Shown here: positions 2,859 through 25,420 of the stretch, piece after piece | Layout: every line of letters starts with the position of its first letter | Numbering within the stretch: position 1 is the first letter of the stretch | DNA from: a phage | Assembly: GCA_015370545.1 (NCBI GenBank) | Contig: GCA_015370545.1_3932.1 | Strand: one strand, 5' to 3' | Length of the DNA: 64,000 bases | Notes under the pieces: model-generated | Told to the model about the DNA's origin: nothing | Seen by the model: the letters and a program-made list of their open reading frames with translations, nothing else | The model's database searches: none | Program-made: the position numbers and the translations under genes

Positions 2859-3928
2859 TTAACCAACACCCAATCTTTTTAGGTGGTGAGAGAAAGACAT
2901 TTGACTCACTTAACAAGCACTACCCAAAAATCTTTGAGCTATATAAACAACAAAAAGCGCAAGACTGGTCAGAAGATGAGTTCCCTTTTGAACAATCACG
3001 TCTTGATTTTGAAAGTGTGCCAGCATCAATGTCAGGTGTAATGCTTGAGATTCTTAAGTGGCAGTGGGAAGCAGATACCCAAGTTGCTAAAAGTTTAGCG
3101 TTTGCTTTTGCACCATTCATCTCTGATGACATTTATGCAACTGCAATTATGAAGCAGTCTGAGATTGAAAACCTACACGCCCTGACTTACTCGGAGATTG
3201 TAAGGCAATGTATTAAAAATCCTGAAACAATCTTAGATGAGATTAACCAGAACATTGCTGTACAAGACCGATTAAAAACTGTGAATCGTGTTCTTGAAGA
3301 ATTGCTGGATGAAGGTATAAACTATCGACTGAGTTATGTCCGTGACTCACTTCTGGACAAAGACCCTTTACACTTCCATAAAGTGATTCTGAAAGGTCTA
3401 TTTGCAGTGACTGCACTGGAAGGTATATCTTTTATGGCATCCTTTGCATGTACTTTTGCACTTGATGCTCAAGATAAATTTCAGGGTATTGCTCAAGCTG
3501 TGCAGAAGATTATGCTTGATGAAATCCTTCACACTAAAATTGATATTGAAGTTTTAAAAGAAACTTTAAGAGATGACGAGTGGCAGAAAGCTTTTCAACA
3601 AATTCTTCCAGAGATTAAAGTAATCTTAGATGAAGTAGTTGAAAGTGAAGAGAAATGGTCGTATTATATCTTCTCTGAAGGACGTGCTGTAGTTGGGTTA
3701 AATACAAAACTTCTTCATGAGTGGGTTTACTATAATGCTGCCCCACTGTATGATATGTTTGGCATTCCCAGAGATTTTGTAGCTCCTAAAGAACCACCTT
3801 TGAAGTACATGATTAAGAAGATGGAAATTGATAAAGAGCAGAATGCTAATCAGGAGCAACAGAACGGTGCGTACCTATTGAATACTGTTGTAGATGATTT
3901 GAATAGTGGATTTTTAGAGGTTCCTTAA
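2855..3928 (+). CDS. nrdB: ribonucleotide reductase class I small subunit
   Basis: ferritin-like diiron protein; start taken at ATG 2855 preceded by AAGGAG. Confidence 0.85.
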   Translation: MINQHPIFLGGERKTFDSLNKHYPKIFELYKQQKAQDWSEDEFPFEQSRLDFESVPASMSGVMLEILKWQWEADTQVAKSLAFAFAPFISDDIYATAIMKQSEIENLHALTYSEIVRQCIKNPETILDEINQNIAVQDRLKTVNRVLEELLDEGINYRLSYVRDSLLDKDPLHFHKVILKGLFAVTALEGISFMASFACTFALDAQDKFQGIAQAVQKIMLDEILHTKIDIEVLKETLRDDEWQKAFQQILPEIKVILDEVVESEEKWSYYIFSEGRAVVGLNTKLLHEWVYYNAAPLYDMFGIPRDFVAPKEPPLKYMIKKMEIDKEQNANQEQQNGAYLLNTVVDDLNSGFLEVP

Positions 3929-4170
3929 TGACTTATGTAATTTACTCCAAAACTGGATGCCCTCAGTGTGAGACCGCAAAGAATTTTGCAAAAGCTCGTG
4001 GTATTGACCATGTTGTGAGAATGTTAGGGTATGACTATGAGCTATCAGACCTGATGGATATTGCACAGATGCCAGTTCGTCAGATGCCATTCATCATGAA
4101 AACTGATGGACAAAACCTAAAACCTGTTGGAACGCTACAGAATTTTATGGCAGAGGTGAATAATGCTTAA
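3928..4170 (+). CDS. glutaredoxin-like redoxin (NrdH/NrdC-like)
   Basis: 80 aa with CPQC active-site motif near N-terminus; start overlaps nrdB stop. Confidence 0.7.
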   Translation: MTYVIYSKTGCPQCETAKNFAKARGIDHVVRMLGYDYELSDLMDIAQMPVRQMPFIMKTDGQNLKPVGTLQNFMAEVNNA

Positions 4171-8100: not shown

Positions 8101-8224
8101 GTCTCGTCGTAAAGTAGGTTATCGGTAAAGGCCACTTTACAATGTTCTACAGAACAAACTTAACCGTTTTGGTGTCACTGAAGAGCAACTTAAAACCTTT
8201 TGTGAAAAGATTGAGAGATATGAA

Positions 8225-8482
8225 ATGGGACTTTGGAATAGTTTTAAATTAAAAGTAAAAGCAGCACTAGCTTCATTAGGTATGCTCACTGGTGTTGATG
8301 TGACTCATCTTATGCAGAATTTTAAGATGGATGAGAGGCTGGCTAATGAGATTATGGAAAGTATCTATGTAGGCCGTGGCAAAGGTGGTAAGAAACAAGC
8401 CCACCGCCAATCCGGTGCAGCAGCTATTAAACGAGCAGCTAAGAAAGCTCGTAACCGTAAACGTAACAAGAAGGTTAAATAA
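8225..8482 (+). CDS. hypothetical protein (basic C-terminus)
   Basis: 85-aa ORF with Lys/Arg-rich tail. Confidence 0.4.
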   Translation: MGLWNSFKLKVKAALASLGMLTGVDVTHLMQNFKMDERLANEIMESIYVGRGKGGKKQAHRQSGAAAIKRAAKKARNRKRNKKVK

Positions 8483-8805: not shown

Positions 8806-8856
8806 ACAGATACTATAAGGGGACTGTAAAGGTTCCCTTTTTATTTTGGAGATAAC

Positions 8857-9372
8857 ATGTATCTGTCAAATCTGAAACGTTCGGCTGCAATGTCAGTTCT
8901 AAGACTCAGCTTTGAGGAACGTCAAGAGTTCATTGACTCCCACCAATACGACCCTTCTAACTCAAATCACATGATTCTCTGGAATCGTGAGAGCACTCGT
9001 GAAAGAGCACTATTCCGCTATTACCCACACTACACTATAGATAATTTGTATGAATGTTTTGTTGTGAAGAACACCATTACAGTTCTCAATAAACTTTGCA
9101 GATACACAGATAGTCAATCCTTCACATTAGGTCACCACAAGCCTGTTACAAAAGGTGGTGAACATCACTGTGCAAACTGGTTTATTCAGACTAAAGCTGA
9201 TAATCAAAAGCAAGGAGATAGCCTTCTAAGCACTCCCAAGATGACCTATGAAGAGCAAGAGAAATATATCAAAAATAATATGCCAGATGTGCTTGACAAC
9301 AACTATACAGATTTGGCAATATCTCTCCTGTTGAAGTTCGAGACAGTTTATAGGGCAACTTACAATGGCTAA
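8857..9372 (+). CDS. putative HNH endonuclease
   Basis: HHKPVTKGGEHHCANW...NQKQ resembles the HNH H-H/GG/N pattern. Confidence 0.55.
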   Translation: MYLSNLKRSAAMSVLRLSFEERQEFIDSHQYDPSNSNHMILWNRESTRERALFRYYPHYTIDNLYECFVVKNTITVLNKLCRYTDSQSFTLGHHKPVTKGGEHHCANWFIQTKADNQKQGDSLLSTPKMTYEEQEKYIKNNMPDVLDNNYTDLAISLLLKFETVYRATYNG

Positions 9373-9643
9373 AGAAAAGTGGGAGATTTTACCACTAGTC
9401 AGTGAGGGTGGTAATGGTTGTGAAATGTACATGATACGTGGTCATGTCCCAGAACCAATTGCACTTGAGATGGTAAACAATTTTACAGATGGCTCTTACA
9501 AAGACTTGGGAGAACCAACTGTCAAGCAACAATGGGTTAAACCTGTACCAGACAGCACAGGTAACTGTAGTGTACTTTATCACGTTGTAGACCCTGCAAA
9601 ATGCAAATCTGCAATGGCAGTAACAAACGTAACTTTTGATTGA
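9365..9643 (+). CDS. hypothetical protein
   Basis: 92-aa ORF overlapping upstream stop. Confidence 0.35.
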   Translation: MAKEKWEILPLVSEGGNGCEMYMIRGHVPEPIALEMVNNFTDGSYKDLGEPTVKQQWVKPVPDSTGNCSVLYHVVDPAKCKSAMAVTNVTFD

Positions 9644-9658
9644 GAGAGAGAGAAAACT

Positions 9659-10123
9659 ATGATTTTTTGCAATTCCCAGAAGCATGTAATAGAGATTCTA
9701 TATAAGGAGTTTGGTACAGAGAACACCTTTGACTCAAATGAAGCAATTGATGTACTAAGAGAAAAAAGCCTCTTTATAAGAGGTCAATCAATTAACAATG
9801 CTCGTGGCTACCTAACAGTGCTAAGGCAATCCGGTGTACTGATAACTGTAGGCCAAATAAAAAGTAAGGGGAGACTAAGCATCAACCAGATTAACCGAGC
9901 TTTTATGGAGAAACACCCACAACTATCACGAATGTTAGATGATGGACATGGGGAGGTAAAGAGCCTTCAAAAAACAACCTCGACCGATGTTAATTCAGTT
10001 GACATACAACCAGATGTTAGGTATTTTATTGAGGATGTGATGTTTAAAACAATGGATGAAGCAGTTGAACACTGTAAAAAACATCTGATTAAAGTTAAAC
10101 GTGCAAAGATTGTTTGGGAATAA
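9659..10123 (+). CDS. hypothetical protein, tandem paralog 1
   Basis: 154 aa; shares ILYKEFGT..FDSNEAI and C-terminal YFI..MF.T..AVE.CKK..IK.KR.KI.WE with 10157-10609. Confidence 0.5.
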   Translation: MIFCNSQKHVIEILYKEFGTENTFDSNEAIDVLREKSLFIRGQSINNARGYLTVLRQSGVLITVGQIKSKGRLSINQINRAFMEKHPQLSRMLDDGHGEVKSLQKTTSTDVNSVDIQPDVRYFIEDVMFKTMDEAVEHCKKHLIKVKRAKIVWE

Positions 10124-10156
10124 TACTTCAAAAACTTCTATTGAGAGAAAAAGAAC

Positions 10157-10609
10157 ATGTTAAGTTCATTTTACATAGCACTGACTGAGATTCTATATAA
10201 AGAATTTGGTACAGATACCATCTTTGACTCTAATGAGGCTATAAAAGCTCTCAGAAGTGGAAGTGACTGCCTAAGTAAAAGCCCTATAGCAAACATTCGG
10301 TATTACTTGACCACAATGCGTAAAATGGGGCTACTGATGGCTGTAAGTCAGGGAACAAAAGACTGTGCTTCTCTATACCTAAACCAACTAAATAAAATGA
10401 TGATAGAGAGCGACCCACAACTATCAAGACTACTTGATAGTGTTGACAAAACTAATAGGAATACAAGAACATCAAAACCAAAAGGTGAGTTCCTCCCTGA
10501 TGCAAAATACTTTATTGATGAACTAATGTTTGATACCATAGAAGATGCAGTTGAGTATTGCAAAAAGAATATTATTAAGTTGAAAAGAAAGAAAATTATT
10601 TGGGAATAA
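10157..10609 (+). CDS. hypothetical protein, tandem paralog 2
   Basis: 150 aa; paralog of 9659-10123. Confidence 0.5.
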   Translation: MLSSFYIALTEILYKEFGTDTIFDSNEAIKALRSGSDCLSKSPIANIRYYLTTMRKMGLLMAVSQGTKDCASLYLNQLNKMMIESDPQLSRLLDSVDKTNRNTRTSKPKGEFLPDAKYFIDELMFDTIEDAVEYCKKNIIKLKRKKIIWE

Positions 10610-10635
10610 AACTACCATTATCGAGAGAGAAAACT

Positions 10636-11517
10636 ATGAAAACATCTATCCGTGTTACAGTTCATTCACCAACTAAAGGAACTCATGAAGAAGAGTTTAA
10701 CATCATCCAATTTCCTTCTGGTGAGATTGGTGGACACTTTTCGCCAGAGTTTGTTGATTTCACTGCTTATGCAGCATCATCCATCAACAATGTGATTATG
10801 ATTGTAAAAGGTTATGATAAGGATACATTGTTTGCTGTGGCACTTGCTAAAGAAGCAATTGATGATTTAATTCCTCATGGTTATGCTTTAAAGACTGTCA
10901 TCTTTTACTACTTACCAAATGCACGTTATGACCGTCACATGTTTAAAGGCGACGCAGCAGCTTTAAAGGTTTTTGCTAAACAGGTAAATGCAATGGGATT
11001 TGGTGCAGTCTGTGCAGTTGACCCTCACAGCTATGTACCAGATAACCTGTTTAACTGCTTCCAGAGTATTCCTCAAAAGGAAATTGCAGTCCACTATGCA
11101 AATGACCCACTGATTGATTACTTAGTAGCCCCAGATGCAGGTGCTGCTAAGAAGATTGCAGAGACTGCTAAAGAGGTGGATAAACCATATATCACAATGT
11201 CTAAAGTACGCAACCTTAAGACTGGTGAAATTACTGGTATGCGAATCCTTGATGATGTTGATTTGACAGATAAAACCGTCATGATTCTGGATGATATCTG
11301 TGATGGTGGTCGAACCTTCATAGAAGCAGCTAAACATCTTCGTGAAGCAGGTGCAAAACGTGTGGAACTCTATGTAACACACGGTATCTTCTCTAAAGAT
11401 GTTGAAAACCTTCTTGACAATGGCATTGACCACATCTACACTACAAACTCTTTAGGGGAAGCTAAAGACCGTGGCTTAACACATTATGGTCAAGTTACTG
11501 TAGCAAACCTTGATTGA
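10636..11517 (+). CDS. Prs-family pyrophosphokinase (PRPP synthetase-like; possibly ADP-ribose diphosphokinase Adps)
   Basis: ILDDICDGGRTFIEAAKHLREAGAKRV matches the Prs PRPP-binding loop; start at ATG 10636. Confidence 0.75.
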   Translation: MKTSIRVTVHSPTKGTHEEEFNIIQFPSGEIGGHFSPEFVDFTAYAASSINNVIMIVKGYDKDTLFAVALAKEAIDDLIPHGYALKTVIFYYLPNARYDRHMFKGDAAALKVFAKQVNAMGFGAVCAVDPHSYVPDNLFNCFQSIPQKEIAVHYANDPLIDYLVAPDAGAAKKIAETAKEVDKPYITMSKVRNLKTGEITGMRILDDVDLTDKTVMILDDICDGGRTFIEAAKHLREAGAKRVELYVTHGIFSKDVENLLDNGIDHIYTTNSLGEAKDRGLTHYGQVTVANLD

Positions 11518-11525
11518 AACTTTAT

Positions 11526-11548
11526 AGGGGCTTAAAAGCCCCATTTTG
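11526..11548 (+). terminator. intrinsic terminator or attenuator
   Basis: GGGGCT-TAAA-AGCCCC hairpin followed by ATTTTG. Confidence 0.55.
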
Positions 11549-11562
11549 AGAGAGATTAAAAG

Positions 11563-13344
11563 ATGACTAAATCACTTTATGCAGTACCAGCAGGTTTAAA
11601 CGCAGATGCTTACAAATCTGGTCATGTTTACCAGTACCCTAGTGCAACAGAGTACTTGATGTTCAACCTGACACCACGTAGTGACAAATGGTTTAACAGC
11701 CCCTTAGCAATTGATGGTGTAGTAGCTTTTGGTATTCAACGTTTCGTTAAAGATTACTTGATAGACCACTGGAACGCCACTTTCTTTGAACGTGATAAAA
11801 AAGAAGCCATTGATGAAATCTTAGAAGTCATGAATGGTGTTCTGGGTAAAGATGCTATCGGTCGAGAGCATTGGGAAGCACTTCACGACTTAGGTTATCT
11901 ACCAGTTGAAGTATACGCTGTAGAAGAAGGTACAGTTGTTCCTATGCGTGTACCAATGATTGTCTTCCAGAACACTGTTTCAGGTTTCCATTGGGTAGCG
12001 GGATATCTGGAAGATGCTTTCTCTGCTGAGATTTGGAAGGCTTGTACCATTGCAACTATTGCATTGCATTATAAACGCATCTGTAAGAAGTGGGCTGACC
12101 TTACTTGCGACAATGACTTACATTTACCTTATCAGTGCCATGACTTTGCTATGCGTGGTATGTCCGGCTTTACTGATGACGCATTTAACGCTGTAGGCCA
12201 CTTAACCAGCTTTAAAGGGACTGATAGCTTCCCTGCTGTATATACAGCTAAACGCATCTACGGACAGTCTTACCAAGTCTCTGATATTGGTGGTTCTGTA
12301 CCAGCCACTGAACACTCTGTAATGTGTGCAAACATTGCTTGGGAAGGTGGTAATGAGTTGGTTGAAGAAGAAAGACGCTTTAAAGGTGAGTTACAAACCT
12401 TCCGTCGTTTCTTAACAGAAACTTACCCAACGGGTATTGCAAGTGTTGTTTCAGATACTTATAACTTCTGGAGAACTGTGTCAGAAATCTTACCAGCACT
12501 CCGTAAAGAAATTATGGAACGTGATGGCAAACTGGTAATTCGTCCTGACTCTGGAGACCCTGTACACATTGTCACAGGTTATAAAACAATCCACTTAGAG
12601 TGTGCTAAAAAGGCTTATTACGAGCACCTAAGTAAGCTGGAAGCCAGTGACGCAATGCTGAATGCTGTTCTGAACATGAAGCTTGAAAACATCAGCTATG
12701 GTATTGCTGGATGGCTACTGTCAGAAGGCTACGAAATGGTTGTTGACAGAGAAGACTTTGAAGTTGCTGATACAGTGCTGTTGAAGAACGCTTATATGGT
12801 TGGCTCTGCAAACGTTGTAACACGCCCTGTAGCAGAGATTGATGGAGCTATTAAGACCTTGTATAACATCTTTGGAGGAACTATCAACTCTAAAGGTTTT
12901 AAGGTACTGGATGAGCACATTGGACTTATCTATGGTGACTCTATCACGTTGGAACGTGCAAACGAAATCCTGAAGCGTCTGTATGAAATGGGGTTTGCAA
13001 GCTCTAACGTGGTGTTTGGTGTAGGCTCTTACACTTACCAGTACATGACTCGTGACACCTTTGCATTTGCTGTCAAAGCAACTCTTGCAAGCATTGGTGG
13101 CAAAGAGATTATGCTTGCAAAAGACCCTAAAACAGATAGTGGTGTTAAGAAATCTGCCTTTGGTGGTGTAGCACCTATGTGGGATGGTGAGAATTTGAAA
13201 GCTGTAGATGGCTACGGATTCCAGAGCTTTGCAGATGCACTTGACCACCCAGCTTGTGCTTTACGTTTAGTCTTTAGCAACTCTGAGCAGTTCGGTTACA
13301 CATCTCTTGGTGATATTCGAAATAATATTGACAAGCAGCTTTAA
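11563..13344 (+). CDS. nicotinamide phosphoribosyltransferase family protein (NAMPT/NadV-like; possibly Namat)
   Basis: 593 aa; N-terminus MTKSLYAVPAGLNADAYKSGHVYQYP recalled as NAMPT-family-like; adjacent to Prs-like gene. Confidence 0.75.
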   Translation: MTKSLYAVPAGLNADAYKSGHVYQYPSATEYLMFNLTPRSDKWFNSPLAIDGVVAFGIQRFVKDYLIDHWNATFFERDKKEAIDEILEVMNGVLGKDAIGREHWEALHDLGYLPVEVYAVEEGTVVPMRVPMIVFQNTVSGFHWVAGYLEDAFSAEIWKACTIATIALHYKRICKKWADLTCDNDLHLPYQCHDFAMRGMSGFTDDAFNAVGHLTSFKGTDSFPAVYTAKRIYGQSYQVSDIGGSVPATEHSVMCANIAWEGGNELVEEERRFKGELQTFRRFLTETYPTGIASVVSDTYNFWRTVSEILPALRKEIMERDGKLVIRPDSGDPVHIVTGYKTIHLECAKKAYYEHLSKLEASDAMLNAVLNMKLENISYGIAGWLLSEGYEMVVDREDFEVADTVLLKNAYMVGSANVVTRPVAEIDGAIKTLYNIFGGTINSKGFKVLDEHIGLIYGDSITLERANEILKRLYEMGFASSNVVFGVGSYTYQYMTRDTFAFAVKATLASIGGKEIMLAKDPKTDSGVKKSAFGGVAPMWDGENLKAVDGYGFQSFADALDHPACALRLVFSNSEQFGYTSLGDIRNNIDKQL

Positions 13345-13358
13345 AAGTATATGATAAG

Positions 13359-13382
13359 AGGCTCCTACGGGAGCCTTTTTAA
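13359..13382 (+). terminator. intrinsic terminator
   Basis: AGGCTCC-TACG-GGAGCCT hairpin followed by TTTT. Confidence 0.7.
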
Positions 13383-13397
13383 TTTCTGGAGAAGATT

Positions 13398-13733
13398 ATG
13401 AAAATCAAAGAGATGAACATCAACATTGTCTTAGAAGAACGTTGGGAGAATATTAAGAAACCTGAAGATGGTAAAAAGCTCCTTAACAAAATTTTAGTAG
13501 CAGCTAAAGAAGAACTGAATGGCAAGATTGCAGCAGCAGTCACAATAAAAGTTTGTGTAAAAGGTCTTCCAGACAACCACCAATTTGCGCTTGACGAGTT
13601 TAAAAAAAGCTTCTACAATCCAAACAAACAGATGCTTGAAAGTAACTTTGCAGTATCTACAAGTATCGTCCATGACAGAAGCTTTATCCTTTACAAAAAT
13701 ATGAGAGGTGAGTCATGCAAGCATATTGGATAG
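13398..13733 (+). CDS. hypothetical protein
   Basis: 111-aa ORF. Confidence 0.4.
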   Translation: MKIKEMNINIVLEERWENIKKPEDGKKLLNKILVAAKEELNGKIAAAVTIKVCVKGLPDNHQFALDEFKKSFYNPNKQMLESNFAVSTSIVHDRSFILYKNMRGESCKHIG

Positions 13734-13891
13734 AAATTTTACTGTCACTTGGTAGCGTAGCAGTGTTTGTTTACCTTCTTTGCAAGTACTTTGCAGAACA
13801 CAAGAAGTGTGACTACTGTAACGGAGAAGGGTATACAAGAGCAGGTTGTTGCCCTATGTGTGGCGGTTCTGGTAAGATGTTTAATAAGTAA
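13715..13891 (+). CDS. small membrane-anchored zinc-finger protein
   Basis: 58-aa ORF not in the supplied track; SD GAGGTG; N-terminal hydrophobic helix then CDYCNGEG...CPMCGGSG (two CxxCxGxG motifs). Confidence 0.45.
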   Translation: MQAYWIEILLSLGSVAVFVYLLCKYFAEHKKCDYCNGEGYTRAGCCPMCGGSGKMFNK

Positions 13892-13919
13892 TTTAACAGT
13901 AAACTAAGAGGAAAGTATT

Positions 13920-16286
13920 ATGCGCATGGTAAATGACCACGCAGAAGTGATTAAGAGTTCGACTTCTTTAGAGACGTCTCAAGCACAGATTACAATGACA
14001 CCTGAGATGTTCAGCCTTTTGAGTTCTGGTGTATATACATTTAAAGAAAGGGCAGTGATTCGTGAACTGTCATGTAACGCAGTAGATGCTCAGAAAGAAG
14101 CTGGAAAAGAGAAAATCCCATTCCATGTGCATTTACCTACTCGTTTTGAGCCTTACTTCGAAGTTCGTGATTTTGGAACTGGATTGACTCATGATAAAGT
14201 TATGAGTTTGTACCTAAACTACGGGGCTTCTACGAAGAATGACTCTAATGACTACATTGGTGCAATGGGTATCGGCTCAAAGTCACCATTTGCAATTGCT
14301 CAGTCATTCACAGTATCTAGCTATGTTGACGGTGTTGTTAATAAGTACTCTGTTTATCTTGAGAATGGTATCCCTCAAGTAACTAAGCTGACAACTAACC
14401 CAACAAAAGAACCTAATGGTTTAGCTGTACGTGTGGCAGTTGCTGACCACCGTATCTCAAAGTTCTTTGAAGAAGCTGGGAATGTGTACTCATACTTCAC
14501 TGTAAAACCAGAAAGTAATATTGAGTACGACGATGTATTAGCAGATATGAACGTCATTGCCCGTGAAGAAGGTGTTTATGATGCCATGATTCATAAGCAA
14601 AGCTGGCGTTCTGGCGCTAACAGAACAGAGTTTAATGTGGTGATGGGTAACATTGCCTACCCTGTTAACATGGAAGCATTACTTGGAGATGATTTCTTCA
14701 AAGTATTGCCAGAATTTTTCCGTAGGAGCGTAGACCTTGTAAACATCTACATGCCTATTGGTTCAGTTGCTATTGCAGCTTCTCGTGAAGCATTGCAGAT
14801 GAATGACACGACAAAAAATGTTATCATCGAGGCTACTAAAAAGATAACTGAAGCAATTACAAAGGATGTTATCAAGAAAGTTAATAGTCAACCTACACTC
14901 ATGGATGCTGCACAGGCTTATGCTGAGTTACGCTTGAACTCACGAGAGATGTTTAATGCTGTGTGTCCAAAGCTAGAGTGGGGAGGCGTTAAGCTTGATT
15001 CTCTGGAAGAAGAATTACTAAACATTCGTCGTGGAATTATCTACGCAGAAGACGGCTCAGTTATTTATGAACGTGATGGTAAAGGTAATATTAAGGTTGA
15101 TAGGAACGGAAACAACATCCCTAAAGTAGATTATCTTTATAATCCAGTTGCTTATGTTAAGTTCAACTCTTTAGAAAGTAAGATTCGTGCAACAGCACTT
15201 TCCTACACTCAAGAGGCAAGTATGTTCAATATCTTTGGCGTAATGCGCAAAAGCCAAATTGAACAGTTTTTGTTTGTTATCAATGACCGTCGCAATAAAA
15301 ATGGTACTGAGAAGACTGTAGGACGCAACCAAATCTTGCGTGGTGCATGTCGAGACTATGCCAGTGAGTCAAGTCTGTTTCACAGATATAATGGTATTGT
15401 CTTTGTATTCCCTAATGAGGAAGAGCTAGATGATTTAATCAATCTGCACAAACTTGATAAAAGCTTGTTAAAGATTGTGAAGATGTCTGATAAGGAACAC
15501 CATTACCAGCGTAAAGAAGCTGTAAGAGGTGTTGTAAAACTCTGGAAAGCTGTTCCAGCAGAAGGTGTAGCTTCCTATAAAGAGGTTTCAGAAGACTTAG
15601 ATACGATTGAAGAGCCTCAACTTTATATTAAGGCAGTAGGTGACACAGTTGATGGCGAATGTTTTTGCTCATCTCCAGAAGATGTAGCTAAGTCAGTTGC
15701 CAATGTCATTGAAAAGACAGTCTATGTTTTCCGAAAAGCAAATTGGAAAAAGATACCAGAAGACTGGATTGAAGTAGATGAGAAGCTCTTGAACGACAGC
15801 TTAACTGATGTTCACTGGATTAATCATAACAGGTATATGACACGTATCTATATGAATGGTGTCCTAGACCTTACAAGCAGTTGGATTATTGCCAGAAACT
15901 TTACGTTCAATAACAGGAAGATTTCTCGCGGTTATTGCTATTCACGAGACACAAACAAAACTATCTTCTTAGAAGGTAATGAAGATGCTGTTGAGGCAAT
16001 GTTTGGTAAAATCCAATACGTTGCTGCACCGTTTGCATACACTTACACTATTAGTCGGTTGCAAACTTTGAAAGAGTGCCTTGACAACGATACAAAGCTG
16101 TACAAGAAAATTAAGAAAGCTGGTGACCGTATGGTCATTAAGGTGACAAACTATCTTTCAAAAAGAAAACAAGAAAACTTCTTGCTTTCTCATTTAGATT
16201 GGAATAAAGTGTCACCCATCGAAGTGAGTAAGTTCTTAGGCTTTGATGTGAAGTGTGTTCCAGAAGGGACTACAATTTACGATTAA
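13920..16286 (+). CDS. rIIA: rIIA-like protein (GHKL ATPase domain)
   Basis: 788 aa; N-terminal VIRELSCNAVDA and FEVRDFGTGLT resemble the Bergerat ATP-binding fold; followed by an rIIB-sized gene. Confidence 0.6.
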   Translation: MRMVNDHAEVIKSSTSLETSQAQITMTPEMFSLLSSGVYTFKERAVIRELSCNAVDAQKEAGKEKIPFHVHLPTRFEPYFEVRDFGTGLTHDKVMSLYLNYGASTKNDSNDYIGAMGIGSKSPFAIAQSFTVSSYVDGVVNKYSVYLENGIPQVTKLTTNPTKEPNGLAVRVAVADHRISKFFEEAGNVYSYFTVKPESNIEYDDVLADMNVIAREEGVYDAMIHKQSWRSGANRTEFNVVMGNIAYPVNMEALLGDDFFKVLPEFFRRSVDLVNIYMPIGSVAIAASREALQMNDTTKNVIIEATKKITEAITKDVIKKVNSQPTLMDAAQAYAELRLNSREMFNAVCPKLEWGGVKLDSLEEELLNIRRGIIYAEDGSVIYERDGKGNIKVDRNGNNIPKVDYLYNPVAYVKFNSLESKIRATALSYTQEASMFNIFGVMRKSQIEQFLFVINDRRNKNGTEKTVGRNQILRGACRDYASESSLFHRYNGIVFVFPNEEELDDLINLHKLDKSLLKIVKMSDKEHHYQRKEAVRGVVKLWKAVPAEGVASYKEVSEDLDTIEEPQLYIKAVGDTVDGECFCSSPEDVAKSVANVIEKTVYVFRKANWKKIPEDWIEVDEKLLNDSLTDVHWINHNRYMTRIYMNGVLDLTSSWIIARNFTFNNRKISRGYCYSRDTNKTIFLEGNEDAVEAMFGKIQYVAAPFAYTYTISRLQTLKECLDNDTKLYKKIKKAGDRMVIKVTNYLSKRKQENFLLSHLDWNKVSPIEVSKFLGFDVKCVPEGTTIYD

Positions 16287-16298
16287 AGTGTTTGACAA

Positions 16299-16316
16299 GG
16301 GGCTTCAAAGCCCCTT
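16299..16316 (+). terminator. possible terminator hairpin
   Basis: GGGGCT-TCAA-AGCCCC hairpin; weak T tract. Confidence 0.35.
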
Positions 16317-16365
16317 AGAATAGCCTCACAAATTGATTGATTAACTAGCAAGAGAGAGTAATAAG

Positions 16366-17475
16366 ATGACTACTAAAACTAAAGCACAGATTGACGCAGA
16401 AATTTACAAACTGGTAAAAGAAGGTAAGCTGACCAAAACAGCTATTGCACAGAAATTTAACACTTCAACCCGTTCAGTTGGTCGTGCTGTAGAGCGTCAT
16501 GAAGCAACCCTAAAAGGGAATAAAAAGGCAACTTCTACACCAGCTACGAAGACTTTGAAACAAGTTGCTAAGACTTTTAAAAAGAAAGCTGGCAAACAAG
16601 TTGAAAAGGTCGTTAAAGACACTGTACAGAAAGCTCCAGTAAATAAACTGCACGAAGCTATGCAGAAAGATGACAAGATTGAGTACATGATTACTGGTGA
16701 TTCTGTAATTATGACTTATGGTTCAGAATCTGAAATTGTTGAGTCTACTCATCCGAACTATCAAGAGATTGTAGTTCATGTTGTGAAAGGTGAGTTCAAG
16801 AAAGCATTTGAACTGATGAACATTCGTAAGTCTATCGAAAACTTCACTCAGGGTGCTATCACAATCAAAGGCGACAAGCTATTCTACGGTGCTGTTGAGA
16901 TGCGTTCTACTCTGGTTGACCGTATTCTTCACATGATGAAAACTGGTGATAAAGGTTTTGAACGACTTGTAATGTTCTTCGAAAAACTGATGGAAAACCC
17001 ATCTAAAGATTCTGTAGAACAACTTTGGGGATTTGTATCTCACCTTGATGTTGAAATTGATGAAGAAGGTTACATCATTGGTTGGAAGAAAGTCTCTACT
17101 CGTGAAGGAAAGCTGGTTGACTCTCACACCTACAAAGTGCCTAATGATTTGGGTAACATTGTAGAAATGCCACGTTGGATGGTTGATAATAACCGTAACG
17201 TAACTTGCTCTCAAGGTCTTCATGTTGGCGCTTGGGATTATGTTCGTTGCTTCTCAGGTGATACCATCCTGAAGGTTCGTGTCCATCCACGAGATGTTGT
17301 ATCCGTACCAACTGATTACAACGATATGAAGATGCGTTCCTCTCGTTATGAAGTTGCAGCAATCGTTGATAATCAACGTAAAGTGCTGGAAGCATGGGAC
17401 GGTAAGACTGAAGCTTTGCATGTCATCGTTGGCACTGCTGGTGAACTCATCTCTCAACGTAAACGTGAAATCTAA
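16366..17475 (+). CDS. rIIB: rIIB-like protein
   Basis: 369 aa directly downstream of the rIIA-like gene; call is by position and size only. Confidence 0.5.
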   Translation: MTTKTKAQIDAEIYKLVKEGKLTKTAIAQKFNTSTRSVGRAVERHEATLKGNKKATSTPATKTLKQVAKTFKKKAGKQVEKVVKDTVQKAPVNKLHEAMQKDDKIEYMITGDSVIMTYGSESEIVESTHPNYQEIVVHVVKGEFKKAFELMNIRKSIENFTQGAITIKGDKLFYGAVEMRSTLVDRILHMMKTGDKGFERLVMFFEKLMENPSKDSVEQLWGFVSHLDVEIDEEGYIIGWKKVSTREGKLVDSHTYKVPNDLGNIVEMPRWMVDNNRNVTCSQGLHVGAWDYVRCFSGDTILKVRVHPRDVVSVPTDYNDMKMRSSRYEVAAIVDNQRKVLEAWDGKTEALHVIVGTAGELISQRKREI

Positions 17476-17490
17476 TAAGTAATTTCTTAA

Positions 17491-17516
17491 AAGGCTGCTT
17501 CGGCGGCCTTTTTTAT
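17491..17516 (+). terminator. intrinsic terminator
   Basis: AAGGCTGC-TTCG-GCGGCCTT hairpin followed by TTTTTATTT. Confidence 0.7.
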
Positions 17517-17575
17517 TTGTATTTTGTGCAGAGTGCTGTATAATTGTTGTCACGATAAACTAAACAGGAGAACCA

Positions 17576-18124
17576 ATGAAGAAATTGATTCTAGGTTTGT
17601 GCTTAATGTTTACAGCACACTTATCTTATGCAGTTGACTGCCCAGAGCTATCAATTAGCCAAAAAGTGAACATGTTAAAAGCTTACCAGTATGGTGAGAA
17701 TAACATGGGTAAAGGTTGGGGTATCACTCTAGCAGCTATAGCCTTACAAGAGTCAGAGTTAGGTCTGAAGGTAGAAAATAAAAAGACCCATGACTATGGT
17801 ATCTTCCAGAATCACTTGAAGACTGTTGTAAAGCGTAACAAAATTAGTCCTAATGTTGCTAAAAAGAAACTCTTAAAAGATTTTGACTATGCCGCAAAAG
17901 AAACACATAAAGAGCTTGAGTTTTGGACGAAGGTACATGGTCAGCCAAAGTCAAAGAAGACTTTACAAAAAGTTTTAGCATCATATAATGCTGGGTATTC
18001 GTACAAAATCCCTAAAGCTAAGAAATACTCTCAAGATGTCTATAACAATATGAAAGTTATCGCTCAATGTGAATTTGCAACAAACATTTCTAAGGTAAAT
18101 CATGAAAAAATTAAGAAAGTCTGA
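17576..18124 (+). CDS. secreted protein with lytic-transglycosylase-like motif
   Basis: N-terminal signal peptide MKKLILGLCLMFTAHLSYA; ALQESELGL...DYGIFQ resembles the SLT catalytic region. Confidence 0.45.
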   Translation: MKKLILGLCLMFTAHLSYAVDCPELSISQKVNMLKAYQYGENNMGKGWGITLAAIALQESELGLKVENKKTHDYGIFQNHLKTVVKRNKISPNVAKKKLLKDFDYAAKETHKELEFWTKVHGQPKSKKTLQKVLASYNAGYSYKIPKAKKYSQDVYNNMKVIAQCEFATNISKVNHEKIKKV

Positions 18125-18797
18125 TGAAGTCCTGTGCCACGCTTATGACTTGCATCCTCATGAGTTAGGTCTTGATTCCTGTGTATGGACTCCAGAACAG
18201 TGCAGGGATTTTGAAGACACTGCAAGAGAAGTTGTATGTTCACTGGAAGAGTTCCACACATCAGAACCAATTGTGAACGTTGTGGACAAAGAGACTGGAC
18301 AAACTATAGGTGTAAGGCGTGATAGTTTAGTCATAGTCAATAAAGACCTTGTAGAAAAAGGTAACCTCATCTTAGCAGATATTGATGGTGTTCTTACAAA
18401 TTTTAATCACGAAGATTGCTCAACGGAATTGACTGATGGGTCATTCTCACAGTACACTAATCTTCTTGACTCTGTAAGAGCAAAACCAACATATGTTTTT
18501 AGTATTATTGATGCAATTGCTAGTCATGCTGCCATTGGACTCTTGACAGCGAGAGGTGAATCTCAGAGAATACCTACTGAGATGTTTTTAAGGCATAACA
18601 TAGAGCATGATTACATGCTTTTTATGCGTGGTTTTGGAACTAACTCTATAAGTGCAGAAAGTTTAAAAGTGAGGATGATTCAGTCTTGCATTCTTCCTTA
18701 TTTTAATATAGTATGCTTTATAGAAGATACAGAGAAGAATGTTCAGAAGGTTAACAGAATCCTTCCACACATTAAAACCATGTTAGTTAAACATTGA
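18102..18797 (+). CDS. HAD-superfamily hydrolase-like protein
   Basis: LADIDGVLTN (HAD motif I-like), GLLTARGE and IEDTEKN; true start uncertain. Confidence 0.4.
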   Translation: MKKLRKSDEVLCHAYDLHPHELGLDSCVWTPEQCRDFEDTAREVVCSLEEFHTSEPIVNVVDKETGQTIGVRRDSLVIVNKDLVEKGNLILADIDGVLTNFNHEDCSTELTDGSFSQYTNLLDSVRAKPTYVFSIIDAIASHAAIGLLTARGESQRIPTEMFLRHNIEHDYMLFMRGFGTNSISAESLKVRMIQSCILPYFNIVCFIEDTEKNVQKVNRILPHIKTMLVKH

Positions 18798-18808
18798 GAG
18801 AAAAACTT

Positions 18809-19273
18809 ATGAACAATATCATTACGGTAGCACTGGACGATACGGCAAACAAATCTGAAGTAGTTCGTAAAATGATTCAAGGTAACTTTGAAGGTAAAAT
18901 TTTCCGTGCTGTTAATGTAAAAGCTGATGGTAGTATTCGTGAATATCGTGCATTGTTGAATGTTAAAAAGCACGTAAAAGGTGCTGGTTCAACGACTGCA
19001 CACAAAGAAAACCTGATGACTATCTATGATATGGGTAAGGCTTCAGAGTTAGGTGCTGAAGGTATCGTTAAAGAAGGTGCTCCGTATCGCTCTTTCAATC
19101 TGGAAACTACTCTTATGCTTTCCTTTACAAGTGGTTCTAAAACAATCACTTATCTCTTTACTGATGCTGCAACGGTATCTGCTATTAAGGATAGCACTGT
19201 CAAAGCTGGCGTAGTTGCTGCTGCAAAAGCTTCTTCGATGGCTGCAAATATCCTTGCTAAAGTCCTCGGTTAA
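18809..19273 (+). CDS. hypothetical protein
   Basis: start set at ATG 18809 after TTGAGAGAAAAACTT leader. Confidence 0.4.
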   Translation: MNNIITVALDDTANKSEVVRKMIQGNFEGKIFRAVNVKADGSIREYRALLNVKKHVKGAGSTTAHKENLMTIYDMGKASELGAEGIVKEGAPYRSFNLETTLMLSFTSGSKTITYLFTDAATVSAIKDSTVKAGVVAAAKASSMAANILAKVLG

Positions 19274-19284
19274 GGTTAAGATAC

Positions 19285-19306
19285 AGGCTCCTTCGGGAGC
19301 CTTTTT
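19285..19306 (+). terminator. intrinsic terminator
   Basis: AGGCTCC-TTCG-GGAGCCT hairpin followed by TTTTT. Confidence 0.7.
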
Positions 19307-19325
19307 CATTTCAGGAGATTGTTAA

Positions 19326-19673
19326 ATGACATTTAAAGAGTTCTGTCAAGCTACTTTCATAATTGTTTTCTTAGTTGGGGCAGGTGTCTGGGGAGGATAC
19401 TCTTACAGAGACTACCAAGTTGCTGAAGCTGAGTTAAGCAATGAGAAACTAATAAGTGTTGCTAAAGATGCTTATCAGGAAGGTTTAGCCACACTCAGCA
19501 CCAATTACAAAAATGATTTGAAAGATGTGCTTGCTAAGAATAAGCATACAAAAGAGGTACTAACATATGAAAAAACTAAGCCAGAGTTTTATAATGTTTG
19601 TGTTACTGATAATTATGTCAGGGTGTTCAACGAACAAAGTGAACAGTACATTCAAAAACTCCCAAGTAAGTGA
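19326..19673 (+). CDS. i-spanin (Rz-like)
   Basis: 115 aa; N-terminal transmembrane helix then charged periplasmic domain; contains an overlapping lipoprotein gene in another frame. Confidence 0.65.
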   Translation: MTFKEFCQATFIIVFLVGAGVWGGYSYRDYQVAEAELSNEKLISVAKDAYQEGLATLSTNYKNDLKDVLAKNKHTKEVLTYEKTKPEFYNVCVTDNYVRVFNEQSEQYIQKLPSK

Positions 19674-22170: not shown

Positions 22171-22338
22171 CAGGTGGGGATGTCGCCATTTCTCACAAGG
22201 CTAACACATCTGGAAATAAAAGTCAACAGAAAAATTTGTAGCGGATTGAAAAATAATTCTTGATTGTAGTTCTGTTTTGTGGTAGTCGCGTGCGCCCGTT
22301 TCATTACAATTTTTGCAAAAATATTTTTAAAATTCCTA

Positions 22339-22430
22339 TTGACTCTTTGAGTATGGTTATCTAATATTTGCATCAACGGGGAGGGAATGACCTTCCCCAC
22401 TAAGTAAAGTCCTAAACTGGAGATTCTAAA
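22339..22430 (+). promoter_or_regulatory. type A cassette: promoter + 5' stem-loop + conserved SD
   Basis: TTGACT-17-TAATAT, then hairpin GGGGAGGG-AATGA-CCTTCCCC, then CCTAAACTGGAGATTCTAAA-ATG. Confidence 0.6.
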
Positions 22431-22811
22431 ATGGCATACCGTGCACCTAAATTCATCAACAAAGACAACTTCCGCAACGCACTGGAGAAGTCACTTGATG
22501 AAAAATTTAACGGCAAATTGATTGTTGTTCACGCATTCAATTTTAAGTATGATATTAACGGGAATAAAATCAACCATTACACGGCAACCATGTTAGATGG
22601 TACGCTATCAAGTGAAAAAGCCGTACTGAATGCACTTGCAGGACGTGGTAAAAACCTGATAAGCTGCAATAAGAGACGTTATCAAGGTGGCGCATATGGT
22701 TATGATGATGCTGTTTACCATCTTGAAAATATGGGCTATTCAGTGGAGAAAGCTGGAGCGTCTCAAATAATTGGTAGTGATGGTTATGTGACAATCTTCA
22801 AAATTAAATAA
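22431..22811 (+). CDS. hypothetical small protein (cassette gene 1)
   Basis: 126-aa ORF behind type A element. Confidence 0.5.
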   Translation: MAYRAPKFINKDNFRNALEKSLDEKFNGKLIVVHAFNFKYDINGNKINHYTATMLDGTLSSEKAVLNALAGRGKNLISCNKRRYQGGAYGYDDAVYHLENMGYSVEKAGASQIIGSDGYVTIFKIK

Positions 22812-22815
22812 AAGT

Positions 22816-22897
22816 ACTTTACAAGGGGCTTATAGTTCGATAAAGTAAGCCCCAGATAAAGAGCTTTATCACTCAATCCTAAATTGGAGATTCAAAA
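22816..22897 (+). promoter_or_regulatory. type B cassette: TTTACA + GC hairpin + conserved SD
   Basis: AGTACTTTACA, hairpin GGGGCTTA...TAAGCCCC, AGATAAAGAGCTTTA...CCTAAATTGGAGATTCAAAA-ATG. Confidence 0.55.
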
Positions 22898-23155
22898 ATG
22901 GCTATTATCAAAAACGTTGTAGTTCCTGCAAAAACTCGTGATGACGCTCGCATCATGGCGAAAAAGTTAGGCGGGAAAGTGGTTGACAACGGAAAACAAT
23001 CTGCTGTAAGATGGAGCGTGAAGGCTGATAAGCAACTAACCTTAAAACGCAGTTCAAACAATCTTTTTAAAGGTGTAAAATCACTCGGTAAAGTGAACGT
23101 GTTTACCAAAAAAGGCTATAAAATGCACTTATCATTAACTGGCAATTTAATCTGA
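22898..23155 (+). CDS. hypothetical small protein (cassette gene 2)
   Basis: 85-aa ORF behind type B element. Confidence 0.5.
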   Translation: MAIIKNVVVPAKTRDDARIMAKKLGGKVVDNGKQSAVRWSVKADKQLTLKRSSNNLFKGVKSLGKVNVFTKKGYKMHLSLTGNLI

Positions 23156-23163
23156 TAAAGTAC

Positions 23164-23245
23164 TTTACAGGGGGCTTAAAAGCTGATATCTTAAGCCCCA
23201 GATAAAGAGCTTTACCACTCAATCCTTAAACTAGGAGATTCAAAA
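23164..23245 (+). promoter_or_regulatory. type B cassette
   Basis: same architecture as 22816-22897. Confidence 0.55.
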
Positions 23246-23758
23246 ATGAAAACTGTAGAAGCTACCTTTGAAGTTGTAAAAGAAAAATTTTCCATCATTT
23301 ACGAAGCTGTTAATTGCTTTGAAGCAAGCCATAACCTTGATAATTGGGAGTTTACAGATGACCATCAAGGCGGCGTGACTATTAAAAACCCCAACTGTCA
23401 GCGTAATGATTTTAAATATGCAATCCCTTTACATTACAGCCTTAAACAGCTTTCAAGTGACTATGCAAAACAAGGCCGGGAAAATCCATCAAAAGAGGCT
23501 TACATAAGCTTACAGAAAGAACTAGAAAGAGATTTAGAGGCTTCAGAATACAACCTTGCCGCGAAAGTTGTCGATGCAAATGGTCAAACAATTTTAGATA
23601 GTTTTTATATTGGTTACGCTTTCGATTGGTGCTATAGTGACGGCGATGATTTAGAGGATAGACTAAAAGAAGAGGTGAGCAATTCAGACGCAGAATCTGA
23701 AGTATTAGAACGCTTGGAAGCATTAAAAGATTCAGTGATGAATATCTTTAAGAACTAA
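23246..23758 (+). CDS. hypothetical protein (cassette gene 3)
   Basis: 170-aa ORF behind type B element. Confidence 0.5.
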   Translation: MKTVEATFEVVKEKFSIIYEAVNCFEASHNLDNWEFTDDHQGGVTIKNPNCQRNDFKYAIPLHYSLKQLSSDYAKQGRENPSKEAYISLQKELERDLEASEYNLAAKVVDANGQTILDSFYIGYAFDWCYSDGDDLEDRLKEEVSNSDAESEVLERLEALKDSVMNIFKN

Positions 23759-23767
23759 ATAGATTTC

Positions 23768-23845
23768 TTTACACGGGGCTATCAAGCTGATAAGATAGCC
23801 CCAGATAAAGAGATTTATCAACTATCCTAAACTGGAGATTCAAAA
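23768..23845 (+). promoter_or_regulatory. type B cassette
   Basis: TTTACA, hairpin GGGGCTAT...ATAGCCCC, conserved SD. Confidence 0.55.
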
Positions 23846-24142
23846 ATGAAATTATCAAATAAAGTCCGTGAAAATCTAAGCAAGTTACTCAACAAAATTG
23901 ATTTTATCGAGACATCAAGGAATAGTCATGATGTTATGGAATGGTTACACGGAAAAATCAAAGGCCGTCGTGTAGTGATTTGCTTATGGAATAGTTGCAG
24001 GGAATATAAAAAACCTGTATTACAAGTCAATATCTATGATGATACTTTTAAAAGCCCTGTAAAGTCTAAAAGTGATTTATTAGAATCCTATGAGATAACT
24101 GTAAATGGCAAAGTATCAAGTAAAGAGGAAACACCATGTTAA
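23846..24142 (+). CDS. hypothetical small protein (cassette gene 4)
   Basis: 98-aa ORF behind type B element. Confidence 0.5.
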   Translation: MKLSNKVRENLSKLLNKIDFIETSRNSHDVMEWLHGKIKGRRVVICLWNSCREYKKPVLQVNIYDDTFKSPVKSKSDLLESYEITVNGKVSSKEETPC

Positions 24143-24468
24143 TGACTGGTATCACTGCAATCATTGCCATTTTCGCGCTATATAAGGCATATAAAGCCTA
24201 TAATCTAGCAAATAAGGCAATCACACAGCAGGTTAGCAATAGCCTTGTAGAAAGCTTTCTAGGGCGTCTCAGTGATGAGCAAATAAAGCGGTTAGAAATG
24301 AGCTTCAGATTCAAAGCGAAAACCTATCAGATAAGTGACATCTTCAAGGATGATTTCCAGTTAGTCGATGATTATAATTCTCTGATAAATGCTTTAAATA
24401 TCAGTGACTTAAAAGACTACTACGCTGTAATTGTTCAAGAGTTGAGCAAACGAAAACAAAACTGTTGA
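24136..24468 (+). CDS. hypothetical small protein with N-terminal hydrophobic helix (cassette gene 5)
   Basis: 110 aa; start overlaps upstream stop, no own cassette element. Confidence 0.45.
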   Translation: MLMTGITAIIAIFALYKAYKAYNLANKAITQQVSNSLVESFLGRLSDEQIKRLEMSFRFKAKTYQISDIFKDDFQLVDDYNSLINALNISDLKDYYAVIVQELSKRKQNC

Positions 24469-24557
24469 CACTGATTTTTAGATAGATTAAATTACACATC
24501 AACGGGGAGGGAACAACCTTCCCACTAAATAAAGTCCTTAAACTAGGAGATTCTAAA
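24465..24557 (+). promoter_or_regulatory. type A cassette
   Basis: TTGACA-17-TAAATT, hairpin GGGGAGGG-AACAA-CCTTCCC, conserved SD. Confidence 0.6.
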
Positions 24558-24830
24558 ATGTATACTACTAACAATGGCCTCACTTTGAACGTCACACTAC
24601 GTCACTATGTAGATGGTGTCATGCACTTTGAAGATTTACAAGCTGAACAACATATCTTAGATTGGCAAGTCGCAGGACTCCAAAAAACTGCTACGGGATA
24701 CGGTAAAAAGATTCCAACTAGTTGGAAAGTTCACTATGAAGGACGTTTGCGCAGAATTTATCAAGATGTGCAAAGCAATAGCGCATCGAGTTACATTATA
24801 GTAAAAGGTGAAAAACTGCATTTAGTATAA
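24558..24830 (+). CDS. hypothetical small protein (cassette gene 6)
   Basis: 90-aa ORF behind type A element. Confidence 0.5.
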   Translation: MYTTNNGLTLNVTLRHYVDGVMHFEDLQAEQHILDWQVAGLQKTATGYGKKIPTSWKVHYEGRLRRIYQDVQSNSASSYIIVKGEKLHLV

Positions 24831-24835
24831 AGTAC

Positions 24836-24915
24836 TTTACATGGGGTTTAAAAGTTGGTATCTTAAGCCCCAGATAAAGAGCTTTACCCCTAAATCCTAA
24901 ATTGGAGATTCAAAA
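24836..24915 (+). promoter_or_regulatory. type B cassette
   Basis: TTTACA, hairpin GGGGTTTA...TAAGCCCC, conserved SD. Confidence 0.55.
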
Positions 24916-25320: not shown

Positions 25321-25328
25321 AAATTTTA

Positions 25329-25420
25329 TTGACACTGATTTTTAGATAGACTAAATTACACATCAACGGGGAGGGAACAACCTTCCCACTAAATAAAGTC
25401 CTTAAACTAGGAGATTCAAA
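25329..25420 (+). promoter_or_regulatory. type A cassette
   Basis: near-identical to 24465-24557. Confidence 0.6.

Follow-up and report, generated by a model that had tools for sequence, protein, structure and literature searches.

A (GA)n string before the start codons of a Felix O1-like phage: probably a weak Shine-Dalgarno element rather than a promoter

A Shine-Dalgarno (SD) sequence is a purine-rich element of the mRNA strand, about 5-10 nt 5' of a start codon and complementary to CUC in the 3' end of 16S rRNA; a stop codon that abuts it permits coupling of termination to reinitiation. In phage T4, a subset of early and middle genes, rIIB among them, shares distinctive sequence in the translation initiation region, where RegB (target: GGAG) and RegA (target: a U/A-rich site overlapping the AUG; rIIB is one of its targets) act. 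T4-type phages also possess PeSL cassettes, in which short repeated regulatory strings flank optional open reading frames (ORFs) and coincide with the junctions of insertions and deletions (Arbiol et al. 2010, PMC2839356; Comeau et al. 2014, PMC4122927), and PeSL-mediated shuffling has been documented in them (PMC2839356). Each of these systems is in part like, and in part different from, a (GA)n string that recurs immediately upstream of start codons in the 64,000-nucleotide stretch of phage DNA analysed here ("the window": GenBank assembly GCA_015370545.1, contig GCA_015370545.1_3932.1; the reported interval is 9,373 to 19,273). The window comes from a Felix O1-like myophage of E. coli, a member of Felixounavirus. 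Its bases 9000-19500 align end to end with Escherichia phage vB_EcoM-Pr103Blw (Pr103Blw below) at 96% identity, are covered to 91-93% in the O157 typing phages and other relatives, and find matches in 276 phage records; the remainder of the window also matches Felixounavirus.

The original prediction had pointed to a purine-rich string in the leaders of the ATGs at 9659, 10157, 10636, 11563 and 18809, with a related string before the ATG at 16366, and had offered two interpretations, a phage-specific promoter element or a distinctive translation initiation region. The positions are confirmed in the sequence; the interpretation is half right, for this is a translation initiation region and not a promoter. 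More specifically, and with a probability that we put at about 0.8, the (GA)n string is a weak-to-moderate SD element, a variant typical of its lineage, to which ribosomes would bind. The GA run is read in this way because of its register with respect to the start codon, its pairing with 16S rRNA, its exchange for GGAG or AAGGA in homologues, and the ribosome-binding site (RBS) annotation of a related genome; its position on the coding strand and the conservation of the purine run itself point the same way. The kind of element is already known: in the RefSeq record of Citrobacter phage Mordin, ribosome_binding_site features are placed at these very positions.

The exact 10-mer, TTGAGAGAGA, is present in two copies only, before the ATGs at 9659 and 11563, and the other three leaders each differ from it by one mismatch; the motif starts 15-19 nt 5' of the ATG, with a gap of 5-9 nt between 10-mer and ATG. 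Counted with up to one mismatch, the motif is only modestly more abundant than chance would have it (16 copies as against 8.3 +/- 3.1 in shuffled sequence, 16 being reached by 2 of 100 shuffles), while its placement is highly non-random. A search relative to start codons placed five of the eight exact copies of TTGAGAGA in the window (both strands) no more than 25 nt 5' of an ATG called on their own strand, the expectation being about 1.5%; a similar frequency away from start codons, which had been named as the finding that would undo the original prediction, is thus not what is seen. In the complete Pr103Blw genome the corresponding count is 6 of 11. By the same measure of proximity to starts, GAGAGA scores 36-37%, GGAG 12-13%, and the complement TCTCTC, 0. 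On the plus strand between 8 and 19 kb, leaders account for seven of the ten alternating GA/AG runs that are 6 nt or longer, and for all four that reach 8 nt or more.

The register is that of an SD sequence: the 3'-most GAG lies 6-9 nt from the ATG in nine of the nine GA-type leaders of the window, and the GAG core of the 48 GGAG/GAGG leaders of this phage lies at a median distance of 8 nt. Paired with the 3' end of 16S rRNA (ACCUCCUUA) by RNAduplex, the seven flagged leaders yield -2.9 to -5.5 kcal/mol (median -5.1), as compared with medians of -6.2 for the other genes and -2.2 for random coding 20-mers. GAGAG alone accounts for -2.9 kcal/mol, and the longer runs reach -5.1 to -5.5 by way of a second register with one A-C mismatch; at 8225, 10157 and 18809 complementarity is weak, the GAG core alone being paired. 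What sets these leaders apart from the textbook SD sequence, then, is GAGAG(A) in place of GGAGG, with three contiguous pairs (or, in longer runs, five of six with an A-C mismatch), a pairing energy on the weak side of the genome median, and the form of a dinucleotide repeat whose length varies between strains. That they can be replaced by canonical SDs is evident from more distant comparisons: Hafnia phage SarahDanielle, a distant member of the Ounavirinae with a 48% identical NAMPT, has AAAGGAA at the same position before both prs and NAMPT, and one paralogue of the first inserted ORF (ORF A, below) in Salmonella phage fBSPA4 has an AGGAA leader, TTAGGAATACACT. Four features typical of an SD sequence (16S complementarity, 5-10 nt spacing, strand-specific enrichment at starts, and replaceability by a canonical SD) are found here.

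Which part of the string is constrained? Five leaders (those of NAMPT, prs, rIIB and the ORFs starting at 18809 and 8225) were compared in 14-34 Felixounavirus and Mooglevirus loci per site, drawn from 28 related IMG/VR loci collected with the prs protein and from annotated GenBank relatives. The purine run, (A)GAGAG(A), is kept at every compared site, while flanks and spacer vary. GAGAGA is invariant in the NAMPT leader (25 unique sequences from 34 loci), the bases before it reading TTTTG, CTTTG, TTTCG or CTAAG; the GAGAG core is retained before prs in nearly all of 34 loci; the GA run before the ORF at 8225 is nearly invariant, every column being at least 90% identical among 12 unique sequences from 14 loci; and the rIIB leader is conserved in 25 loci as CAAGAGAGAG or AAAGAGAGA, the bases at its front reading CAAGAG or AAAGAG. 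Leaders orthologous to that at 18809 read CATTGAGAGA, CACTGAGAGA or CACTAAGAGAGAGA, so that the stop codon alternates between TGA and TAA while the GA run stays constant. The bases before the prs and 18809 runs vary likewise (ATTGA, ACTGA, ACTAA), and the spacer differs between relatives (AAAACT, AATATT, ATTAAAG). The upstream ORF 9365-9643 terminates at the TGA of 9641-9643 and the polynucleotide kinase gene at that of 18795-18797, and the TGA of the motif before prs is the stop codon of the upstream ORF in most relatives, some having TAA instead. Because the run is kept while the bases before it and the spacer change, the 10-mer is a composite rather than a single element: the 3' end and stop codon of the upstream gene, or incidental T's, followed by a (GA)n SD that alone is constrained. 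The TT(G) at its front would accordingly be the end of the upstream ORF, or unconstrained sequence, with no function of its own.

Between strains the length of the GA run ranges from (GA)2.5 to (GA)7, among phages that are otherwise nearly identical. In the prs, NAMPT, rIIB and 18809 leaders (loci L003-L035) the run behaves as a short dinucleotide microsatellite: one phage, for example, has AAAGAGAGAGAGAGAGAAACT in front of prs, and the window has (GA)6 at 9642-9653 where Pr103Blw has (GA)5.

The mechanism would be a simple one. The GAG core would pair with CUC at the 3' end of 16S rRNA, a second, mismatched register (AGAGAG against 3'-UUCCUC-5') would come in with longer runs, and the all-purine run with its A-rich spacer (AAAACT, TTAAAAG) would keep the site weakly structured; where a TGA or TAA abuts the run, terminating ribosomes might re-initiate by translational coupling. 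A run of 5-12 nt would in this way serve some 10-12 genes, most of them in the early/middle replication, nucleotide-metabolism and rII arm. At 9641 and 18795, and in most relatives at prs, a stop codon does abut the GA run and lies 12-15 nt ahead of the following ATG; the leaders of 8225, 11563 and 16366, in contrast, follow intergenic spacers of 124, 45 and 79 nt. In E. coli, A-rich sequence ahead of the start codon favours initiation largely independently of SD strength (PMC7043885); that effect and stop-SD coupling would both fit the GA leaders.

Several observations weigh against so plain an account. Three leaders (8225, 10157 and 18809) pair with only -2.9 kcal/mol, which about 37% of random coding 20-mers also reach, so that pairing alone hardly explains why GAGAGA is conserved there. 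A single A-to-G change would generate GGAG or GAGG, and it is seen in one leader among approximately 130 site-by-locus combinations (the loci being phylogenetically non-independent), a rarity that points to selection for a weak SD or for some GA-specific feature. The GA leaders are marginally less structured than others (minimum free energy: p = 0.03 for the window, 0.08 for the whole genome; accessibility: not significant), which lends an explanation by open structure slight and indecisive support. ATT before GAGAG is commoner than composition predicts, an excess that was noticed post hoc; treating ATT as part of the element was considered and dropped, since stop context (prs/9659 and 18809) and duplication (10157) explain it at those sites, and the two sites that have no upstream stop (8211, and 57679 in Pr103Blw) are judged to be post-hoc coincidence. 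A literature search on Felix O1-like phages found no transcription-start, 5'-end or translation data. Together, weak pairing, rare drift to GGAG and the distribution of the genes leave room for selection for low or tuned expression as the reason for which so weak an SD would be retained.

Why, then, are three copies crowded into 1 kb? The reason is the insertion, at the leader of prs, of a pair of paralogous ORFs, each of which has a leader of its own. These tandem ORFs (A and B) lie between the gp075 homologue and prs, each with a GA-type leader, that of B (at 10140) being 88% identical over 16 nt to that of A (at 9639). On either side of the 977-bp insertion stands one copy of a perfect 17-nt direct repeat, the right copy overlapping the prs leader. 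The insertion is absent from typing phage 1 (TP1) and from 28 of 28 IMG/VR loci, where nothing but a single TTGAGAGAGAAAACTATG stands between the gp075 homologue and prs; in relatives that lack the insertion, the leader at 9640 corresponds to the ancestral prs leader. Mordin (L035) has an equivalent insertion between perfect 37-nt direct repeats (2968-3004 and 3933-3969) that include the 3' end of the upstream gene. The family to which both ORFs belong, phrog_29478, is found in just 16 phage records, with 2-4 matching places in each (presumably tandem copies). The three adjacent copies at 9640, 10141 and 10621 are thus related by one history of insertion or duplication, and the flanking repeats suggest that the ORFs were integrated, or duplicated, at the leader, perhaps by way of a circular intermediate. 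Independent of this event, and stably orthologous, are the copies at 8211, 11546, 16351, 18794 and 37812.

If identical leader strings flank an insertion, is the leader mainly a recombination junction, providing the microhomology by which cassettes are gained, lost and swapped, in short a small analogue of the T4-type PeSL? The likeness lies in the 17-nt and 37-nt repeats that surround the phrog_29478 insertions, and in a fusion of leaders seen in one relative, itself a Felixounavirus (L041; IMG/VR contig 3300045988_004931, 241-258, minus strand): a deletion that removed prs and NAMPT, its junction at a common ATGAAAA, has placed the GA leader of prs before an ORF whose counterpart in the window (at 13398) has a GGAG leader, and this is, on the evidence of the junction, a natural microhomology deletion with leader swap. 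An HNH_3 endonuclease gene (163 aa; Pfam E = 9e-20) that lies between prs and NAMPT in six of 28 loci likewise has its right end at the NAMPT GA run; in these loci the hairpin at 11525-11540 is replaced, the first six bases of NAMPT are ATGAGT rather than ATGACT, and a (GA)n leader persists, with TAA before it. However, an insertion or deletion is viable only if it lies after a stop codon and ahead of the following SD, and selection alone would therefore lead one to expect breakpoints at leaders. ORFs present or absent among close relatives are flanked by repeats at one site only (that of prs), the copies at 8211, 11546, 16351, 18794 and 37812 are orthologous across the genus with no turnover of cassettes, and a role as junction explains recurrence at one site, not conservation or the fixed distance to the ATG. 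PeSLs, moreover, combine a strong sigma70 promoter with a terminator stem-loop and the GA leaders have neither, nor is there mini-circle evidence for them. An exact 18-mer scan of IMG/VR retrieved 14 stretches, 10 of them from Felixounavirus, and the string was not found before genes outside Felixounavirus; the thought that it might be a portable leader was given up, the four matches elsewhere (three of them the same sequence) preceding only a 7-codon ORF and looking like chance. The junction at the prs site is real, but is what one expects of any stop-SD-ATG junction, and that recombination should be the string's main role seems to us very doubtful. A promoter read by a modified host RNA polymerase, as for middle or late genes, is the least probable of the alternatives, and the corresponding half of the original prediction falls away. 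TTGAGA does match the -35 consensus TTGACA at five of six positions, a consensus scan pairs TTGAGA at 18794 with TATCAT 17 nt downstream (10/12) and TTGATT at 9636 with TATGAT (9/12), the NAMPT copy lies after a terminator-like hairpin (GGGGCTTAAAAGCCCC, 11525-11540), and the Felix O1 genome paper states that the temporal control of transcription is unknown (PMC3185647). But the geometry is wrong: only 4-9 nt separate the end of the GA run from the ATG, with no further SD-like element between them, so that a transcript starting from the motif would have neither leader nor RBS; and the putative -10 partners of 18794 and 9636 lie inside ORFs, which would put the transcript start 3' of the ATG. 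The copies share no -10 partner. An upstream stop codon within an operon is overlapped by two copies and, in most relatives, by the prs copy as well, and terminator-like hairpins at 8817-8839 and 13356-13379 delimit the unit in which the genes at 9659, 10157 and 10636 lie. Neither a 5' untranslated region with an RBS, nor a position at the head of a unit, nor conservation of the whole element with a fixed partner is found. The TTG is not kept in orthologues, which read ACTAAGAGAG or CAAGAGAG, with CTG, CTAA or CAA in its stead, and the distant Hafnia phage has a plain AAGGA SD at the same place. By Pfam, no sigma-like or RNA polymerase-modifying family was detected among 76 small non-structural proteins of Pr103Blw (one candidate sigma factor was discarded, its Sigma70_r4 match being sub-threshold and in a 99-aa Cro/C1 helix-turn-helix protein); in the Felix O1 genome paper, too, the promoters listed are all sigma70-like and no such factor is reported, and the paper's table of timing by reverse-transcription PCR is too coarse for testing co-regulation (PMC3185647).

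Another suggestion is that the (GA)n leader is an SD plus an operator, through which an RNA-binding protein or nuclease of phage or host co-regulates early and middle genes, or else a variant that escapes a GGAG-specific activity of the T4 RegB type. In its favour, the GA run has been kept without moving towards GGAG or GAGG, which would be stronger, the conservation of three leaders is more than their weak anti-SD pairing can account for by itself, and pure GA-type leaders are confined to the replication, nucleotide-metabolism and rII arm, a leftward gene block and a Ro-like gene, with rIIB, as in T4, among their genes and none among the structural genes. That last absence is not statistically strong (0 of about 29 late genes, compared with about 11 of about 98). 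Conservation, on the other hand, goes no further than an SD requires: no bases outside the purine run are conserved, either between sites or between orthologues, and no shared secondary structure was seen, Rfam at gathering thresholds returning only 24 tRNAs in the window. Neither a RegA- or RegB-type homologue nor any family of RNA-binding repressors or RegB-like nucleases was detected by Pfam among the same 76 proteins, and the targets of RegB and RegA are both unlike GAGAG. An operator in addition to the SD, or such an escape variant, is accordingly unlikely. Stated more boldly, the (GA)n leaders might constitute a dedicated translational regulon, recognised by an RNA-binding factor or resistant to an SD nuclease, with slippage of the GA repeat tuning expression; this we hold to be decidedly improbable, but if true it would explain the constancy of a weak GAGAGA before several unrelated early genes in two genera, free of drift to GGAG. 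A weak SD, interchangeable with canonical ones, remains the preferred reading. Coordinates are collected in the Table.

Table. Motif copies, leaders, genes and repeats (window coordinates unless stated otherwise; aSD, anti-Shine-Dalgarno; pairing energies in kcal/mol)
Feature	Position	Strand	Remarks
Leader ATTGAGAGAtatgaa of 85-aa ORF 8225-8482 (phrog_4425)	8211-8224	+	GA run 8213-8218; aSD duplex -2.9
Motif copy TTGAGAGAGA(GAGAAAACT)	9640	+	ATG 9659
Leader TTGAGAGAGAGAGAAAACT of inserted ORF A (9659-10123)	9640-9658	+	(GA)6 run 9642-9653; aSD duplex -5.5
17-nt direct repeat GAGAGAGAAAACTATGA, left copy	9646-9662	+	100% identity, spacing 977
Two tandem paralogous ORFs, 154 and 150 aa (phrog_29478)	9659-10609	+	no Pfam family; between gp075 homologue and prs
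Motif copy TTGAGAGAAA	10141	+	ATG 10157
Leader TTGAGAGAAAAAGAAC of inserted ORF B (10157-10609)	10141-10156	+	GA run 10143-10148; aSD duplex -2.9
Motif copy TCGAGAGAGA(AAACT)	10621	+	ATG 10636 (prs)
Leader TCGAGAGAGAAAACT of prs	10621-10635	+	GA run 10623-10630; aSD duplex -5.1
17-nt direct repeat GAGAGAGAAAACTATGA, right copy	10623-10639	+	overlaps prs leader
prs (ribose-phosphate pyrophosphokinase)	10636-11517	+	relatives' annotation
HNH_3 endonuclease gene	10891-11382 of L007		also in L012, L017, L018, L026, L028; corresponds to window 11518-11562
Motif copy TTGAGAGAGA(TTAAAAG)	11546	+	ATG 11563 (NAMPT)
Leader TTGAGAGAGATTAAAAG of NAMPT	11546-11562	+	GA run 11548-11555; aSD duplex -5.5
NAMPT (nicotinamide phosphoribosyltransferase)	11563-13344	+	relatives' annotation
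rIIA	13920-16286		relatives' annotation
Leader AAGAGAGAGTAATAAG of rIIB	16350-16365	+	AG run 16351-16358, no TTG before run; aSD duplex -5.1
Related string AGAGAGAG	16351-16358	+	ATG 16366 (rIIB)
rIIB	16366-17475	+	relatives' annotation
Polynucleotide kinase gene	18102-18797	+	relatives' annotation
Motif copy TTGAGAGAAA(AACTT)	18794	+	ATG 18809
Leader TTGAGAGAAAAACTT of 154-aa ORF 18809-19273	18794-18808	+	GA run 18796-18801; aSD duplex -2.9
154-aa ORF (phrog_2267)	18809-19273	+	
Leader ATTGAGAGGGATTGGAAA of ORF 31550-32053	32054-32071	-	begins ATTGAGAG, contains canonical GAGG; aSD duplex -6.3
Leader (tc)AGAGAGtttaacg of ORF 32933-33277	33278-33292	-	AG run 33285-33290
Leader TGAGAGAAGAGAGTAAAAT of 471-aa TROVE/Ro-like gene (37831-39246)	37812-37830	+	aSD duplex -4.5; outside reported interval

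Copies beyond those of the original prediction are found at 8211 (ATTGAGAGA, ATG 8225) and 37812 (TGAGAGAAGAGAG, ATG 37831) and, on the minus strand, at 33285-33290 (ATG 33277); hybrids with a canonical GGAG/GAGG core occur at 21109 (GGGAGAGA) and, on the minus strand, at 32061-32070 (ATTGAGAGGG) and 33968-33975. Gene names for the reported interval, which also holds small ORFs of no assigned function, are taken from the annotation of Pr103Blw and TP1. ORF calling by program starts prs at a TTG (10600) and the ORF at 18809 at the TTG of the motif itself (18794), and the Pr103Blw record also annotates prs from an upstream start; orthologues support the ATGs at 10636 and 18809 that follow the GA leaders.

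For general biology little is changed by a recurring string that amounts to a weak RBS and a neighbouring stop codon, multiplied locally by gene insertion. The practical consequences are more immediate. In Felixounavirus and Mooglevirus genomes, GAGAG should be admitted as an RBS by gene-calling programs and annotators alike; several records mis-start prs at an upstream TTG or extend ORFs over it. Those who engineer Felix O1-like phages for therapy or diagnosis are offered natural insertion points (stop, GA leader, ATG) and a set of natively weak RBSs, and the flanking direct repeats document the gain and loss of small accessory genes in these genomes.

Good sigma70 matches do exist elsewhere, at 13328-13355 and at 16292-16321, the latter upstream of rIIB. 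At 13328, TTGACA-16-TATGAT stands immediately 5' of the terminator-like hairpin at 13356-13379; the match at 16292-16321, TTGACA-18-TAGAAT, has a hairpin, GGGGCTTCAAAGCCCC, between its -35 and -10 elements. The TROVE/Ro-like gene at 37831-39246, a PHROG "RNA-binding protein" with the Pfam domains DUF2828 and DUF7788, lies directly upstream of an array of 24 tRNA genes (39412-44685).

The cassette array with AGGAGA leaders, from which the original prediction had distinguished the GA string, comprises about 14 small ORFs at 22300-28100, and before 11 of these stands nearly the same unit, made up of a promoter of the TTGACA type (as read at 22.3 and 24.5 kb), a stem-loop rich in G (GGGGAGGGAA...CCTTCCC) and, after it, ACTAGGAGATTCAAAAATG. 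These units at 22.3-28.1 kb, with their AGGAGA SD, are PeSL-like, and resemble direct repeats listed in the Felix O1 genome paper. They give way to some 1.6 kb (28100-29750) that is nearly free of ORFs, the only one with an ATG start being of 46 aa (28139-28279), and is packed with tandem repeats of 8-24 nt (most of them 10-12 nt), for example the TGTTAAGA units at 28990-29090; a non-genic copy of TTGAGAGAGT lies at 29055. This region corresponds to the genome ends and the 581-bp direct terminal repeat annotated in Pr103Blw, and the window thus runs across the ends of the Pr103Blw record.

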